The position numbers and the translations under genes are program-made. From Candidatus Bathyarchaeia archaeon (GTDB taxonomy: Archaea; Thermoproteota; Bathyarchaeia; Bathyarchaeales; Bathycorpusculaceae): 42,464 bases of DNA. The notes beneath the pieces were generated by a model, which was given only the letters and a program-made list of their open reading frames with translations, was not told the DNA's origin and did no database searches. Of this stretch, positions 30,511 to 37,171 are shown one piece after another (the stretch's first letter is position 1; every line of letters starts with the position of its first letter). The DNA lies in assembly GCA_050015395.1 (NCBI GenBank), contig JBEKBM010000027.1, positions 1 to 42,464 on the forward strand, written 5' to 3'.

Positions 30511-30545
30511 ATCGTTATGTTTGTGTGAACAGAACGGCTTAAATA
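30511..30545 (+). promoter_or_regulatory. Candidate ModE operator abutting the wtpA TATA box
   Basis: cgttatgtt-N6-aacagaacg inverted repeat (one mismatch) at 30513-30536, then cttaaata; resembles the ATCGnTATA-N-TATAnCGAT ModE box. Confidence 0.7.
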
Positions 30546-30577
30546 TTACCCGTGAGAAAATAATTCAGGGAAAATAT

Positions 30578-31765
30578 ATGACAGTTGAAAAACGCAAACT
30601 AAGCACTATGGCTTACTCGCTAATTATCATCGGTATATTACTTGGAGGCGCTGTGGGATTTACATTAGGTTACTTTACTTATTCATCGCAAATCAACTCG
30701 CTAAACTCAAAAGTAACGAACCTTCAGACCTCGTTCCAGAACTCTTTAGTAACTTTAGCTTCTAATTCGCCGCCGTTTGCAGTGGGTGCAGCTGGCACTC
30801 TAACATATGCGTTTGGCTCAGTTCTTAGTACGTTTGAAGCACAGTATTCCAGCATTACAGTTGCACCTCCTCTGTTTGAGGGGAGTAGTTTAGTTGCCCA
30901 AGCAGAGAGCACCACAAAACAGTTTAGTTTGGAAGCCGCTGCTGACACGACCGCTATGCCAAGTGTTCTCTTTCCTAAACTCGCAAATTACGAAATTGCC
31001 TTTGGCCAAACACAAATGGTCATTATTGTCAATCTCCAATCTTCCGCTGGGCTCCAACTCTACAACATGTGGAGTGACGTTCAAGGACTTACCGTAAATT
31101 CTACTCAGTGGACTCAGACTTGGCAACAGATGTTCACCTTGATTGCGCTTAACTCGACCACTGTAGTTGGTGTTTCGAATCCTTTCACTGACCCTAGCGG
31201 TTATCAGGCTGCTGGCATGATTCGATTGGCGGGCTTAACTTTCTTCGGAAATGTAACATACCTTTACGACGCGATATACAACAACCCGAGTAAATACGTC
31301 ATGGCAAACACTGAATCAACTCTGGTTACGCTTATGCAGACCCAACACATAGATTTCATAACGTCAGCTTACGAGTCCAACGCTATACCGCAGACGGCAA
31401 ATCAAACCCACCTCGCCTACATCACGCTACCCAGCACAGTTAACCTAGGAGTCTTATCGGACACCAGTTATTATAACAAAGCCAACTTCAGCTACACGGA
31501 ACTGGGAACAACCGAATCATTCGTTGTCAACCCAGTCATCTACTGTGTCACGATTCCAACAGCCTCCACTAACTCGGCAGCTGCCACCTTATTCATCCAA
31601 ACCTTATTCAGTCAAACCGGCCAGAACATACTAAAGAAATACGGGATAACTCCCTTGTTGCCGGGCATCGTCTACGGTAGCTACACCAGTATTCCAAGCC
31701 TAATCAGACCACTCACTACACCGGTTAACGCAACATATTCAGCCTTATTCCCAGCAGGGAGCTGA
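30578..31765 (+). CDS. wtpA: Tungstate/molybdate ABC transporter substrate-binding protein, membrane anchored
   Basis: AAGTL, GS, AAD, SNP.TDPSGY, AYES.A, LP..VNLG, I.Y.VTIP motifs; likely start ATG 30578. Confidence 0.8.
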   Translation: MTVEKRKLSTMAYSLIIIGILLGGAVGFTLGYFTYSSQINSLNSKVTNLQTSFQNSLVTLASNSPPFAVGAAGTLTYAFGSVLSTFEAQYSSITVAPPLFEGSSLVAQAESTTKQFSLEAAADTTAMPSVLFPKLANYEIAFGQTQMVIIVNLQSSAGLQLYNMWSDVQGLTVNSTQWTQTWQQMFTLIALNSTTVVGVSNPFTDPSGYQAAGMIRLAGLTFFGNVTYLYDAIYNNPSKYVMANTESTLVTLMQTQHIDFITSAYESNAIPQTANQTHLAYITLPSTVNLGVLSDTSYYNKANFSYTELGTTESFVVNPVIYCVTIPTASTNSAAATLFIQTLFSQTGQNILKKYGITPLLPGIVYGSYTSIPSLIRPLTTPVNATYSALFPAGS

Positions 31766-32556
31766 TTAAATTTAATGGGTCATTTAGAGCCATACTGATA
31801 TTCTGCGGCGCAATAATTATCTTTTTTTTTCTCTATCCAATCCTACTTATCATAGCACTAGGCGCTAAAAATCTCATTTCTGCGCTCGCGACAGGTTCTT
31901 TTTTGGCTTCGGTTGAGGTTACTTTCGTAATTGCCACAGCCGCAGCGATTCTTTCTGTGGTAGTAGGTACACCTTTCGCTTATCTTATGGCTAGATCCGA
32001 GTTCAAGTTGAAAGAAGTTATCGAAGCAATCATCGACATACCTGTTATGGTTCCACATGTCTTAGTTGGCATAATGATTGTGTTAGCTTTCTCCTCACAA
32101 TATGGGTTAGGTCCATTTCTTCAGGGACTCGGCATAAACCTGATTGATACGCTGATAGGCGCCATAATTACAGTTACCTATCTGTCAGCAACTTACTCTA
32201 TAAGGATGACTGAGTCGGCGATAAAAATGATTAACCCTGATGTCGAGTTGACCGCTCGAACACTAGGTTCCACACCAACATTTACGTTCATCCATGTTAT
32301 AGTGCCTAAAATCTGGAAGTCAATTGCCAACGGAGCGATACTTACTTGGGCAAGAGCGGTTGCGGAGGTGGGAGCGCTGCTCGTGGTAGCTTATTATGTG
32401 TACTTCAACGGTAACAATGTGTATCCAGCTTCAATCTATATTTATGAAGGATACGTAGCACTAGGGTTAACTGGTGTAGTAAAGTATTCAGCAGCTCTTC
32501 TAATAATAGTCCTCGCTACATTCATCATTTACAGGTGGATTCTAAGACACGTCTGA
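31762..32556 (+). CDS. wtpB: Tungstate/molybdate ABC permease; probable CTG start overlapping the wtpA stop
   Basis: PFAY.MAR, DIP..VPH..VGI, AR.LG, WARA..E.GA; frame open for 47 codons upstream of 31903 and encodes a TM helix. Confidence 0.8.
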   Translation: MIKFNGSFRAILIFCGAIIIFFFLYPILLIIALGAKNLISALATGSFLASVEVTFVIATAAAILSVVVGTPFAYLMARSEFKLKEVIEAIIDIPVMVPHVLVGIMIVLAFSSQYGLGPFLQGLGINLIDTLIGAIITVTYLSATYSIRMTESAIKMINPDVELTARTLGSTPTFTFIHVIVPKIWKSIANGAILTWARAVAEVGALLVVAYYVYFNGNNVYPASIYIYEGYVALGLTGVVKYSAALLIIVLATFIIYRWILRHV

Positions 32557-32570
32557 AAGAGAGGAATGCG

Positions 32571-33620
32571 TTGCTTCAAATACTTAATGTTGATCTCACG
32601 CTGGGCACTTTCAGGCTGAGCTCTATCAGCTTAAACGTTGATAAACAAGAATACATGATCATAATCGGGCGGACTGCCAGTGGCAAGACTACGCTTCTCA
32701 AGACAATCGCAGGAGCCTACAGACCATCCAGCGGTAAAATATTGATTGATGACTCAGATATTACAACCATGCCTCCTGAAAAGAGAAATATCGCTTACGT
32801 ATCACAGATTTTTTCTTCATTTGATCCGATGAATGTCCAAAGCAACATAGAGTTCGGGCTCAGAGCCAGAGGCGTGCCAAAGCCGGAGAGAAAACAGTTG
32901 ATTAACGGAGTTGTCAGAGACCTAGGCATTGAACATCTACTGGATAGGATGCCAGCTACGTTAAGCGGTGGAGAACAGCAGCGCGTTTCGTTGGCGAGAG
33001 CGTTGGTTACCAGCCCAAAGATATTACTCTTGGATGAACCGCTTTCGATGATAGACCCCGAGACTAAAGGGTCAATCATACGGCTGCTGAAAGCAATTCC
33101 TGAAAAGTACAACATTCCAGTAGTCCATGTTACTCATGAATGGGACGAGGCCTACACATTAGCAAGTCGAATCGCTGTTATACATCAGGGCAGAATAATT
33201 GAGGTTGGTACTCCTGAACAAATATTTAATGAACCAAGGAGCTATCTTACAGCGAAGCTGGTAGGTTTCTATGATATGCACAAAGGAGACGCTACTCTTA
33301 CTGATTCCGGGTCTACAATAAAGTTGGAGAACGGTATAGAACTGAAGTCGCGTATGAAAATTAGCGGCTCAGTTTACGCCTGTGTGAGGCCAGAACGGGT
33401 TAAACTGAATATTAGTAACGAGTTCAATACCCTTGAAGGAAGAATTGTAGACGTGTTCAGAGAGAGATTTGGGCTTCGCATAATCATCAGTATAAACAAT
33501 ATTGAGTTTACAGCTCTTGTTGGAAGCAAGCCTACAAGGGGAGATGTCGTAACAATTACAATACCAGAAGACAGTGTATACGTGATACCTGCTACAGAAC
33601 TTAATGGCGCGCCCCTTTGA
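32571..33620 (+). CDS. wtpC: Tungstate/molybdate ABC ATPase with C-terminal TOBE-like domain
   Basis: GRTASGKT, LSGGEQQR, LLLDEP, HVTH; likely TTG start 32571. Confidence 0.85.
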   Translation: MLQILNVDLTLGTFRLSSISLNVDKQEYMIIIGRTASGKTTLLKTIAGAYRPSSGKILIDDSDITTMPPEKRNIAYVSQIFSSFDPMNVQSNIEFGLRARGVPKPERKQLINGVVRDLGIEHLLDRMPATLSGGEQQRVSLARALVTSPKILLLDEPLSMIDPETKGSIIRLLKAIPEKYNIPVVHVTHEWDEAYTLASRIAVIHQGRIIEVGTPEQIFNEPRSYLTAKLVGFYDMHKGDATLTDSGSTIKLENGIELKSRMKISGSVYACVRPERVKLNISNEFNTLEGRIVDVFRERFGLRIIISINNIEFTALVGSKPTRGDVVTITIPEDSVYVIPATELNGAPL

Positions 33621-33659
33621 TTAGCTTTATATGGACTTTGCGACATAACCATATCTAGA

Positions 33660-34217
33660 ATGCTCACCAACAAAAAACATAAGCTCTCATGCAAAGTCTG
33701 GATAGAATACAAAGATAAACCGCTAATTGGCAAAGGCGGGGCAGAAATTCTAGAAGCCATCGATAAGGAAAACTCGATTTCTAAAGCTGCAGAAACGTTA
33801 GGAATGTCGTACCGTTATGTTTGGAATTATCTGCATGATATTCAAAAGACGCTGGAGGAGCCAATAGTCGAAACTTTTAAAGGCGGAAAATCCGGAGGCG
33901 GAGGCGCAAGGTTAACTGATTTAGGCAGGAGTTTGCTTGGTGAGTATAATCAAGTTGAGAGTTACTTAAGCAAGGTCTTATCGGATTCAGGCAGTTTGGA
34001 GGTGAAAGGTTTGAAGTTAAGTGCAAGGAACCGTTTTAAAGGAAAAGTTGTAAGTGTTGAAAAAGGCATTATTACAGCCAAAGTTAAAGTTGAAGTAAAA
34101 ATGCCCGTAACTGTCACGGCGGTTATAACAAAGGAAGCAGTTGAAGATTTAGATATTAAAGTTGGCGACGAAGTCGAAGCAATCGTGAAATCGACGGAAG
34201 TAATGATTGCCAAATAA
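33660..34217 (+). CDS. modE: ModE-family regulator (HTH plus single Mop/TOBE domain)
   Basis: SISKAAETLGMSYRYVW, GG.SGGGARLT, KLSARN ... AIVKSTEV. Confidence 0.85.
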   Translation: MLTNKKHKLSCKVWIEYKDKPLIGKGGAEILEAIDKENSISKAAETLGMSYRYVWNYLHDIQKTLEEPIVETFKGGKSGGGGARLTDLGRSLLGEYNQVESYLSKVLSDSGSLEVKGLKLSARNRFKGKVVSVEKGIITAKVKVEVKMPVTVTAVITKEAVEDLDIKVGDEVEAIVKSTEVMIAK

Positions 34218-34838
34218 TTTTTTTTAATATTTCCGTCTAATCTTCCGTCATTCGTTGATGCCATCGAAAGTTACTCCGAAAAACATGTAATTAGGTGATT
34301 CTATAGCTACTCTTACTGCACTTTTCTAAAAGTATTCGTCAATTGCTTTCGCATTAACGAAGGTACTTTGTTGCTCATCCATTTTTTTCATACAACCAAA
34401 TTTGCATGTATATTTTTGTATAAGCTAAAGCGGACTATCGGTTGCTCTTTTTTGGTTAAAACGAAAGAGAGGTGATCAGTGTTTTTTTTCCGAAAGATAA
34501 GTCTAAAAAGATAGCCTTAACTCCGAAAAAACAGGGCAAACAGGGACTTGCGGCTGCGTTGACATATAACCATGAATATGCGTGACTAGTAACAATGAAC
34601 GTGCGTGACATGAAAGAAGAGCCAAAAACAAGCCCTGCTCAACAAAAGAAGCTTAAAACAGACGCTGACGACGTAAAAAAAAAACTTTATCTTCACTGAA
34701 CTTATCAAGTAAAGGTAGTTGACTCTTAAATTTCTTATAAACCAAGAAGTAGGCTTAGTTTCTTGCTGGCAAAACTATTTCATAAAGTGCCTAGCTTCTA
34801 AAACAAGCCGTTGTATGCTTATGAAGCCATTGGTTTTT

Positions 34839-35393
34839 TTACTCTATTACGTACCTGTAAGTAATGTATTCGCCTGCCGTTGTGCTTTTCCTGGTGATTT
34901 TCAGTATATCGCCTGGTTTGGCGCCGATTGCTTTAACCGCTGGGTCGCCTGATTCTATCTGCGGAATCTGGTAGGGCTTAACTCTGTATTGGGCGAGAAG
35001 CTGGTTCTTTTCTTTTTCGCTTAGAATTTCGTGGAGAGGAACTAGTGCATGCTCAAAAATGTCGAAAACTGGGAAAGACTTGGGCAGTAATTCAACTTGT
35101 TTCTTCTTTGCGCCAAGTTTAACAGCGTGTGTGTAGCGTCCTTCAGTAACTACTATTGCGCGGTCGATTTCTTTTTCTTTCATCACTTTGTAGAGTGTGT
35201 TCATGGCGGCGATACCGACGGTTGCTTCACCTAAAATGCACCAGACAATTGCTTTCTCTTTATCCTGTGGAATGTCAATGATATAGCTTATTTCGCCGTC
35301 ATGTTTTTCTTTTTCAAGCAGTTTGTATTTTCTCAGTTTGATAAGTACTTCTGCCTTGCGTTCTTCAATTGTTTCTGTTTTATTGCTCAACAT
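34839..35393 (-). CDS. rpoH: RNA polymerase subunit H/Rpo5 with extra ~105-aa N-terminal Rpb5-jaw/Mrr-like domain
   Basis: C-terminal H.LVP.HEIL...E...LL..Y......P.I...DP....GAKPGD..KI.R.S.TAG....YRYV; 184 aa versus about 80 aa for typical archaeal Rpo5. Confidence 0.9.
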   Translation of the reverse strand: MLSNKTETIEERKAEVLIKLRKYKLLEKEKHDGEISYIIDIPQDKEKAIVWCILGEATVGIAAMNTLYKVMKEKEIDRAIVVTEGRYTHAVKLGAKKKQVELLPKSFPVFDIFEHALVPLHEILSEKEKNQLLAQYRVKPYQIPQIESGDPAVKAIGAKPGDILKITRKSTTAGEYITYRYVIE

Positions 35394-35454
35394 AAACCCT
35401 CAGGATGGGAATACGCGAAACCATAACAAACTATTACCCTTAAACTTTTCCCCT

Positions 35455-36175
35455 TAAAAAAGCGCGACGCCAAAGAAGATGACCCTGATATGCGTACTAA
35501 CCGTCATACTGGGCATCTCCTACAGAAAAATGGAGTCGCTACTACATATAATTAAGCTTCCAGAGCAGGAACCCATACCTGACCACAGCACTATACACGA
35601 CGCCTACAAACACATCAGCGAAGACTACCTCAACCGCGTACTCTCAAGAACAGCAGTGCTCTGCATAGCGGAGTCTGGATGGGTGAAAGGCATAGTTGCA
35701 CCAGACAGTACGGGCGTAAAAACAGACCGCTACCAGACCGTAGAGTTGAAAATGCAAAAGACCCGCAAACTAATCAACCTCAAATGGCACGTAACGGCTA
35801 TACTGGACTACAACATCATATTGACTGCGAAGATAACCAGCGGCAAAGCTAACGACTCTCGGGTTGGCGGATCAATGCTGGAGCATCTGCCCAGAATGGA
35901 GGGCAGCATCTTTGACGCAGATAGAGGTTACGATTCAAACAGAAACTGCATGCGGGCATACCAGAAGGGTATGAAGCCCAACATGAAGCAGCGCGAGACC
36001 GGAGGAGCCAACAGGGGCTTGCGGTTCAGGAAGAAGGCGGCTTTAGAGTTTGATGTGGAGGTTTATCATTTTCGCGGGTTGGTGGAGGGTATATTCGGGG
36101 CTTTAGAGGTTGAGAGGGGTTTGGAGACGAGGTGTCGGCTGAAAAGGACGCAGAAGCGTGGGATTTTGGGAGATT
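35455..36175 (+). mobile_element. Truncated IS5/IS4-like DDE transposase (no terminal repeats seen)
   Basis: G.SYR, P.PDHSTI, DSTG, K.H, DADRGYDS, Y..R..VEGIFG; homology appears to stop at the mch stop codon and the ORF then runs antisense into mch. Confidence 0.8.
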
Positions 36176-37171
36176 CTAAGTCAATCCAAGCGAGTTCTTC
36201 AGGACTTCCACATCCAAGCTGCCAGCACGGAAGGTTTTGCCGGTTCTCGCATTCGTTATGGCAACAACCGCAGGAGCGAAAATGTTGGTGTCAACCTTGT
36301 AAAAGTCAAAACCCGCTTCTTTGAAGATGTCTAGAAACCTCGGATTCTTCTGAGCTAAACGCTTAGCTTCCTGCAGCATTCCCGAAGCAGATGAAGGCGC
36401 CTGCTTCACTATGCCCTCAAGCTTCAGTTCATCTTCATAATCGACGGTGTAATTCGTTACTCCCCCGTACAGAATAGCGTCGTTTGTTCTACCCATGGCT
36501 TCACCTGAATTCGGATGCACCGGCACAATCGGCGCATAGCCCCAAGCATGCTTTACCATCAATGGGTCAAGTTCAAGTCTTTCAAGCTTGTGAAGCCCTG
36601 TTTCCACGATTCTCCCGGAAACCTGAGTGACTCCTGAAAGGCTGGTGGTGGAAAACATGACGATGAACAGGTTTTTCGGCGAGACGTTGCACTTTAAAGC
36701 AATCTGCTGGATTACAGGTTCGGGCGGCGCTTTTTCCGTTTCCAAGACAAGAACTGCTGTGTCTGATTCCTCTTTATGATTGAGCTTTAAGTAAAGGTCT
36801 TTGGGTTTGAGTGCAAGTGCCCTTGCAGGACCCGAAGCAATAGCTGAGTAGTCGTCGCCTTTTATTTGCCAACCTGCGAACTGCGAACCTAAAAGCGATA
36901 AGGCCGGGTGGTCTGTTTGAACAAAGACCGAGGGCAAAACCATGTCGCCATACTGCACTGGCAAGACGGTTGCTTTTCCGTATCCAGCGAGGCATATTTC
37001 GGTTATAATTTCGCCTGCAAGAAATCCGCCCTCCGCCTTGATACCCGCATCTACCAATGTTGTGCCTGACTCTGTCTGCTCAACTGTGACGCCGTACTTG
37101 TCGGATTCATCGCATATTTTTTTGAATAAGCCCAGAGCCGATTTGTTTAGGTTAATCTTGGATGTGGACAC
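36176..37171 (-). CDS. mch: Methenyltetrahydromethanopterin cyclohydrolase
   Basis: DAGI...GG, TDHP...LGSQ.AGW, SGPARALA, Q.SGR.VE.G.HK, MGRTND..LYGG, DFYK.D..FAPA. Confidence 0.93.
   Translation of the reverse strand: MSTSKINLNKSALGLFKKICDESDKYGVTVEQTESGTTLVDAGIKAEGGFLAGEIITEICLAGYGKATVLPVQYGDMVLPSVFVQTDHPALSLLGSQFAGWQIKGDDYSAIASGPARALALKPKDLYLKLNHKEESDTAVLVLETEKAPPEPVIQQIALKCNVSPKNLFIVMFSTTSLSGVTQVSGRIVETGLHKLERLELDPLMVKHAWGYAPIVPVHPNSGEAMGRTNDAILYGGVTNYTVDYEDELKLEGIVKQAPSSASGMLQEAKRLAQKNPRFLDIFKEAGFDFYKVDTNIFAPAVVAITNARTGKTFRAGSLDVEVLKNSLGLT

Follow-up and report, generated by a model that had tools for sequence, protein, structure and literature searches.

A sole archaeal Rpo5 with an N-terminal domain probably related to the eukaryotic Rpb5 jaw in Candidatus Bathyarchaeia

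Rpb5 is common to all nuclear RNA polymerases, and its N-terminal jaw binds downstream DNA as well as several regulators. In archaea, the canonical Rpo5 (RpoH) has 82 to 84 amino acids and its gene heads the rpoH-rpoB-rpoA cluster, while Rpo13, found in the Sulfolobales, is an unrelated helix-turn-helix protein encoded by a separate gene. Here, we describe a longer Rpo5, of 184 amino acids, whose gene stands alone instead, on contig JBEKBM010000027.1 of a Candidatus Bathyarchaeia archaeon (assembly GCA_050015395.1); the whole stretch of 42,464 nucleotides that was analyzed is referred to below as the window. We consider it probable that this protein, the sole Rpo5 of its genome, is built like Rpb5, from an assembly domain and a disarmed Mrr-type domain that is homologous to the Rpb5 jaw and likely represents the ancestor of the eukaryotic one.

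One paper, in its passages on this region, calls the jaw eukaryote specific and describes the corresponding locus of the archaeal RNA polymerase as open and partly taken by Rpo13, which sits next to Rpo5 at a site that, in eukaryotes, is filled in part by the jaw of Rpb5 (PMC2675907); Rpo13 may therefore be a functional analogue. RpoH is described as lacking the N-terminal domain in the relevant passages of two papers (PMC6690254 and PMC3906176), and those of the first name a conserved “TPSA domain” as the part of the human Rpb5 jaw that touches downstream DNA (T117, P118, and S119 in yeast). A table in another publication lists Rpb5_N for Eukaryota only (PMC3424549), and the “Rpo5” passages of a 2026 survey of archaeal small subunits make no mention of a long form (PMC13257274). 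Nor did we find any description of an archaeal Rpo5 with an N-terminal domain among Creative Commons-licensed PubMed Central papers and bioRxiv preprints, supplements excluded.

The open reading frame (Table 1) starts with ATG, and a longer start is impossible because the stop-to-stop frame comprises only 186 amino acids. Its length and residues are exactly those quoted in an earlier note on this DNA, made from its letters alone, and the two-domain Rpo5 proposed there was borne out, with a typical Rpo5 C-terminal domain (C-domain) and an Mrr-type N-terminal domain (N-domain) within one frame. RNA_pol_Rpb5_C (PF01191) matched residues 110 to 182 (E-value of 7.9e-30, 102.9 bits versus a cut-off of 23.5), at coordinates that were identical in a genome-wide search, and the NCBIfam RpoH equivalog NF007129 matched residues 110 to 184 (106.5 bits, cut-off of 83). 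The best matches of the whole protein in the PDB were the 82-amino-acid Rpo5 of Thermococcus (5.4e-25) and Pyrococcus (2e-24), and the alignments with eukaryotic Rpb5 extended past the C-domain to residue 54 or 41. Compared with canonical archaeal Rpo5 (4qiw_H, 8cro_H, and 2pmz_H), the C-domain superposes with a root mean square deviation of ca. 1 Å at 47 to 60% identity, but these proteins lack the 106 extra N-terminal residues. Judging by family membership and conservation, the C-terminal 75 residues would act as a regular assembly domain and fasten the protein to the largest subunit, Rpo1.

The genome (42 contigs totaling 2.59 Mb, with a completeness of 98.9% and a contamination of 3.3%) contains a single match to PF01191, and the protein is its sole Rpo5. 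The rpoB gene is split across two contig ends (C30 and C22), away from the contig of rpo5, and a small gene pair of other kinds was found upstream of it in place of rpoH; no second, short rpoH appeared either there or elsewhere in the genome. These results contradict, for this genome, the suggestion in the earlier note that the protein may be an alternative subunit and part of a second form of RNA polymerase, beside a canonical short RpoH, a reading that we now regard as very improbable. Among 41 relatives searched, 32 of the 34 with a match had only one, and 35 of the 36 frames listed were 180 to 239 amino acids long, the other being a partial match of 55 amino acids. What speaks for such paralogs is the presence of several long copies in another family of Bathyarchaeia, f24, where one genome (G105) has three diverged long-form genes on different contigs (L126, L127, and L128) and G168, G108, and G145 have two PF01191 matches each. 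Alternative polymerase forms are conceivable in these multicopy genomes, unlike in that of the window, with the reservation that the bins carry 4 to 5% contamination.

Residues 1 to 106 alone scored above the cut-offs of both Mrr_cat (PF04471, 33.8 bits versus 21) and NA-iREase1 (PF22722, 33.4 bits versus 27). The latter family is associated with NACHT NTPases, whereas here the partner is Rpb5_C and the protein has no NACHT domain. The true Mrr enzymes of the same phylum retrieved with a profile of the N-domain share with it the pattern G-I-x-V...F/Y-T-x-x-A...I-E-L and carry the catalytic D...(E/Q)xK of these nucleases (QSK in L160, ECK in L161, and QCK in L162), which has been lost in the N-domain, fused here to a polymerase subunit. 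In the window protein, W-C-I stands in place of (E/Q)xK, and across 45 aligned sequences the prevailing residues were W (16), L (9), H (6), and Q (6) at position 51, C (26), A (6), V (6), and I (5) at position 52, and I (20), V (10), L (10), and T (2) at position 53. The commonest residues at these positions are all hydrophobic. At position 53, the four residues listed, none of them lysine, account for 42 of the 45 sequences (the other three are not itemized). Other positions of the same alignment are strongly conserved, namely R21 (45/45), G60 (42), Y87 (41), T88 (35, plus 7 with S), [S/A]90 (39), A91 (38), [K/R]92 (42), and E101 (44). The N-domain is a catalytically dead Mrr/PD-(D/E)XK fold, and the apparent absence of catalytic residues noticed in the earlier note is confirmed. 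When its single sequence was searched against 1.84 billion representatives, 39 clusters were obtained at an E-value of ≤0.001, made up of long-form Rpo5 and fragments, with no eukaryotic Rpb5 or free Mrr protein among them.

The relation to the jaw was found with profiles of the N-domain searched against the PDB (177,635 distinct sequences, matches listed at E-values of ≤10). Using 22 Bathyarchaeia N-domains (profile A2), 11 of the 14 matches were Rpb5, including the top eight places, with E-values of 4.2e-5 for the best (9mu7_E) and 1.1e-3 to 3e-3 for six more, and the first match of another kind was Kidins220 (0.36). A profile of nine Asgard-type N-domains (A4) gave Rpb5 in four of five matches, the first other one being a de novo protein (0.65). 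When both sets were put together (A5, 30 sequences), Rpb5 took the top 11 of 14 places with E-values from 8.2e-6 to 0.088, and LlaBIII, at 0.41, was the first nuclease and the first non-Rpb5 match. As a control, we used 10 N-domains of a cysteine-rich paralog (A6), the nearest paralog family of the domain (hhalign E-value of 7e-20 to A5), for which the only match was 1pc2_A (E-value of 1.1) and none was Rpb5. In the aligned region, strands are followed by a helix and by the motif Y-T-x-[S/A]-A-[K/R], which lies opposite the T-P-S-A-K of animal Rpb5 in the alignments to 9mu7_E and 28jc_E. Helix 1 with its RGY motif aligns to Arabidopsis NRPB5 (profile A2) and to yeast Rpb5 (profile A4), the latter alignment beginning at this very point. 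By these profiles, the likeness of the N-domain to the Rpb5 jaw exceeds chance.

The predicted structure points in the same direction. An AlphaFold2 model from an alignment of 45 archaeal sequences reached a predicted local distance difference test score (pLDDT) of 90.9 and a predicted template modeling score of 0.78, and a single-sequence model (pLDDT of 48) was set aside. The elements of its N-domain (helices at residues 9 to 20, 61 to 73, and 89 to 97 and strands at 24 to 31, 34 to 41, 46 to 53, 78 to 83, and 100 to 103) follow the order of the PD-(D/E)XK fold, i.e., helix, three strands, helix, strand, helix, and strand. In a Foldseek search of the PDB, the first 33 places all corresponded to two-domain Rpb5 chains (31 eukaryotic and 2 from African swine fever virus [ASFV]), the best being 8uhd_E (E-value of 2.8e-16, TMq of 0.79, 200 columns, and 28% identity); one-domain archaeal Rpo5 chains had TMq values of 0.39 to 0.40, and the first nuclease, EndoMS, appeared at rank 50. 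Identity over the C-domain was 59 to 60% with the Rpo5 of Thermococcus and Pyrococcus versus 26 to 35% with eukaryotic chains. VIA, which is independent of Foldseek, also placed whole Rpb5 chains first, with matches spanning 172 to 179 residues (Z-scores of 16.0 for 7eu0_E over 172 residues, 15.6 for ASFV 8q3b_E over 179, and 13.4 for 8hil_E), followed by the C-domain alone in 2pmz_H (12.1). The nucleases matched residues 6 to 108 of the model (AF1548, 1y88_A, with a Z-score of 10.1 over 99 residues; NucS, 9.4; and AspBHI, 8.7). On account of the two rankings, we consider the domain Mrr type and the whole chain Rpb5 shaped. The jaw fold, on which the earlier note had made its proposal depend, is present in the model, which superposes on whole Rpb5 chains.

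Eukaryotic Rpb5/RPABC1 (PF03871 plus PF01191; 8uhd_E, 7eu0_E, and 1dzf) is among the closest described systems, with a dead PD-(D/E)XK jaw ahead of the assembly domain in the same order and with the same junction, and with a whole-chain match (template modeling score of 0.79 and Z-score of 16); the RGY motif in helix 1 and the T-x-S/A-A-K loop also align. The archaeal protein differs from it in its archaeal-type C-domain, its Mrr_cat score, and the single archaeal polymerase that it would serve. The Rpb5 homologs of giant viruses (ASFV 8q3b_E and vaccinia virus 6rfl_E and 9ex9_E) are also two-domain chains that superpose on the model, but they are viral polymerase subunits and have only 15 to 19% identity. 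That the N-domain is closest specifically to the eukaryotic Rpb5 jaw is supported by the profiles together with the predicted two-domain structure.

Several points weigh against this reading. RNA_pol_Rpb5_N (PF03871, 89 positions) gave no match at an E-value of ≤10, either on the N-domain or anywhere in the genome, and by sequence the Pfam models place the domain as Mrr_cat and not as Rpb5_N. The single N-domain sequence had Rpb5 as its best PDB match at an E-value of only 0.24, and the best match of the Asgard-type profile, yeast Rpb5, was marginal (0.031). The archaeal loop keeps the T, S/A, A, and K/R but not the proline of TPSA. The N-domain, at ca. 105 amino acids versus ca. 130 to 140 for the eukaryotic jaw, is ca. 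20 to 30 residues shorter and lacks the insertion after helix 1, where both the A2 and the A4 alignments have gaps. The predicted arrangement of the domains is weaker evidence than the profile matches and may partly be recall, given that AlphaFold was trained on Rpb5 structures. Finally, the presumed position of the N-domain on the polymerase and its contact with DNA are extrapolated from Rpb5, its putative assembly into the enzyme from the conservation of the assembly domain, and the possible descent of the eukaryotic jaw from similarity and architecture only.

Many of these observations would also fit a convergent fusion, in which an inactivated Mrr domain joined the archaeal Rpo5 independently and the likeness to the jaw reflects a shared PD-(D/E)XK superfamily and similar constraints. 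Mrr_cat and NA-iREase1 are above their cut-offs and Rpb5_N is unmatched, the fold fits the free nucleases AF1548, NucS, and AspBHI, and Mrr domains are mobile and often fused, as in the paralog of the same class that carries the domain on a cysteine-rich C terminus. However, no solved Mrr-type nuclease fell below an E-value of 0.4 with the N-domain profiles and 11 Rpb5 sequences did, the paralog control found no Rpb5, and the domain order and junction agree, with RGY and loop in register; the superposition of whole chains and the long form in a protein labeled as Hodarchaeota also speak against it. We regard convergence as unlikely.

The long form is widespread. At an E-value of ≤0.001 there were 1,305 related proteins, and the 120 listed had 183 to 215 amino acids, 86 to 98% identity, and PF01191 plus PF22722 and/or PF04471. 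Within a sample of 151 Bathyarchaeia genomes, 146 had a match, and among the 144 listed (frame lengths counted by hand) 84 had frames of at least 172 amino acids (long) and 60 of at most 154 (short), sorted by family. All 17 long-frame loci that were fetched had the N-domain (16 by phmmer and the other one by profile), versus none of 17 short-frame loci, where no open reading frame of at least 60 amino acids within ca. 1.5 kb matched it either, as would be the case for a split form; the N-domain profile found nothing in 11 genomes of the short-form families f17, f14, f19, f23, f26, and f27. Across 401 genomes of the phylum, strong matches to this profile (E-values below 1e-24) appeared only fused to Rpo5_C in Bathyarchaeia, in each of the 51 genomes sampled from the order and in 2 of 13 that belong to other families within the class. 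Outside the class, 25 of ca. 336 genomes gave weaker matches, and the four inspected were three true Mrr enzymes and one cysteine-rich paralog.

Outside the phylum, the family of P0155 (62 matches of 177 to 190 amino acids) has the same architecture, with PF01191 and PF04471, and an N-domain of the same family as that of Bathyarchaeia (hhalign E-value of 4.7e-21). One of its members, P0194, is labeled by NCBI as Candidatus Hodarchaeota, an Asgard group; the sequences of the Asgard-type profile were drawn from this family, and the occurrence in Asgard archaea rests on that label together with the profile results. In a tree of the C-domain (78 columns and 64 rows, unrooted and with no outgroup), the long/short label changed three times and the Asgard clade had a support of 100/100, with 90/61 for its attachment; weak as it is, the tree settles neither the sequence of gains and losses nor the position of this clade.

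The architecture could also be explained if archaea had recently acquired a two-domain Rpb5 gene from eukaryotes or giant viruses. A protein-language-model search with the N-domain had Nucleocytoviricota and eukaryotic Rpb5_N clusters as its nearest hits, a result that we treat as a lead only because the scores (0.82 to 0.86) are below the 0.9 line of the tool. Against such a transfer, the C-domain is archaeal type, with its best PDB matches in Thermococcus and Pyrococcus, the N-domain retains a clear Mrr_cat signature, and the long form has become fixed throughout an order and in many families, in a distribution that agrees with the C-domain tree (just those three label changes). We give this explanation very little credence.

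The earlier note had left the choice between a pre-eukaryotic origin of the jaw and a convergent fusion undecided. We favor the former because of the identical domain order and junction, the aligned RGY helix and T-x-[S/A]-A-[K/R] loop, and the Hodarchaeota-labeled long form. An Mrr_cat domain would have been fused to Rpo5 in archaea and then inactivated, the long form would survive in many Bathyarchaeia and Asgard archaea, and the eukaryotic jaw would probably descend from it. For the full sequence of events, i.e., that the jaw was captured from an Mrr-type nuclease and disarmed in archaea before eukaryotes existed, still works as a subunit in many Bathyarchaeia and Asgard archaea, and was inherited by eukaryotes and giant viruses, we lean only slightly toward acceptance. 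By analogy with Rpb5, the N-domain may touch the downstream duplex through the Y-T-x-[S/A]-A-[K/R] loop and the following helix, as a counterpart of the TPSA contact, and it could offer a docking surface for factors. It would take up a site that model archaeal polymerases leave vacant and that Rpo13 occupies in part in the Sulfolobales.

Table 1. Coordinates of the rpo5 gene and its features (positions in the window)
Feature	Position	Strand	Evidence
rpo5/rpoH gene, 184 codons plus stop (stop at 34839-34841)	34839..35393	minus	Open reading frame list; Pfam and NCBIfam matches; sole PF01191 match of the genome
N-terminal jaw-like domain, residues 1-106	35076..35393	minus	Mrr_cat and NA-iREase1 scores; N-domain profiles; AlphaFold2; VIA
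Arg21 of helix 1, invariant, in the R-x-Y/R-G-Y motif shared with Rpb5	35331..35333	minus	R21 in 45/45 sequences
Residues 51-53, W-C-I, where nucleases have the (E/Q)xK motif, catalytic lysine gone	35235..35243	minus	Column counts in 45 sequences
Residues 87-92, Y-T-H-A-V-K, the Y-T-x-[S/A]-A-[K/R] loop and helix start	35118..35135	minus	Aligns with T-P-S-A-K of Rpb5
C-terminal assembly domain (Rpb5_C), residues 110-182	34848..35066	minus	PF01191 E-value of 7.9e-30; best PDB matches; Foldseek
Short upstream region from start codon to transposase gene, possible promoter	35394..35478	minus	Sequence; ends of X19 and X20

Regarding the neighborhood, rpo5 is followed by a convergent ModE-like gene and preceded by a DDE transposase gene on the other strand. 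A total of 188 loci with relatives at 81 to 98% protein identity were found, 80 of which were kept; nearly all of these were titled Candidatus Bathyarchaeota, Bathyarchaeia, or Bathycorpusculum, in agreement with the TACK lineage proposed in the earlier note, and the other bin labels were Nitrososphaerota (two), Crenarchaeota, Thermoproteota, and Methanocella sp. (one each), and “uncultured archaeon” (three). The convergent ModE-like gene was present in 60 of the 80 kept loci, and in one relative (L053) the upstream neighbor is divergent, so that rpo5 stands alone, as had been stated for the window, where both neighbors lie on the opposite strand and rpoB is on other contigs.

The transposase gene (DDE_Tnp_1, 35479-36324, plus strand) begins 85 bp upstream of rpo5, and at its 3′ end it runs into the end of the Mch gene on the minus strand (36176-37171). 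Since neither this transposase nor Mch appeared within 3 kb of rpo5 in any of the 80 relatives, the arrangement seems to result from an insertion or rearrangement found only in the genome of the window; no terminal inverted repeats were found around the transposase gene. On the other side of rpo5, positions 30521 to 34217 code for a solute-binding protein, a permease, an ABC ATPase, and the ModE-like regulator (helix-turn-helix plus TOBE), likely a molybdate or tungstate uptake cluster.

Two metatranscriptome contigs, X19 (559 nt, 34861-35396) and X20 (564 nt, 34855-35397), each align in one piece that bridges both domains; with 23 differences each, they come from a close relative (96% alike). 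Both domains thus lie on one RNA-library fragment, with DNA carry-over as a possible source. Adapter letters begin directly beyond 35396 and 35397, 3 to 4 nt before the ATG, a weak hint of a near-leaderless mRNA, the ends being those of contigs and not a mapped start. The absence of coverage of the flanks (34600-34847 and 35406-35500) in four RNA-library runs is uninformative because the source relative may differ there.

Several variants of these proteins were also detected. The cysteine-rich paralogs (L150 to L159, e.g., L151:684-1250:+ and L150:673-1236:+), of ca. 180 to 190 amino acids, combine a dead Mrr/jaw-like N-domain with a C-terminal domain of the pattern C-x3-C ... C ... C that has no Pfam match. 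They come from 10 genomes (G163, G151, G175, G030, G528, G251, G113, G029, G131, and G513) of several Bathyarchaeia families and, in the case of G251, of another class. A long-form Rpo5 of 210 amino acids in G151 (L036:1492-2121:-) has an insertion of ca. 30 residues between the jaw-like and assembly domains, with two C-x-x-C pairs, zinc-ribbon-like. In L133, L134, and L125 (genomes G078, G115, and G046), the stop-to-stop frames of the long form reach 55 to 80 codons further upstream (236 to 260 amino acids). Lastly, P0142 (220 amino acids), P0130, and P0146, all database proteins, begin like the long Rpo5 and, just inside the assembly domain, change to sequence unrelated to it, probably as a result of frameshifts or chimeric gene calls in metagenome contigs.

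The finding carries less weight in that precomputed Pfam annotation already shows this combination of domains. Even so, an archaeal Rpo5 with a jaw would shift one more “eukaryotic” polymerase module back into the archaea, and the polymerase models from Sulfolobus, Thermococcus, and Methanocaldococcus would not cover archaeal diversity. The long Rpo5 would be a sequence intermediate that bridges Mrr_cat nucleases and the jaw, and the coexistence of long and short forms within one class could provide a simple system for the study of jaw function. If this reading is true, the polymerase of these uncultured archaea would grip downstream DNA with a lower jaw of the eukaryotic kind.

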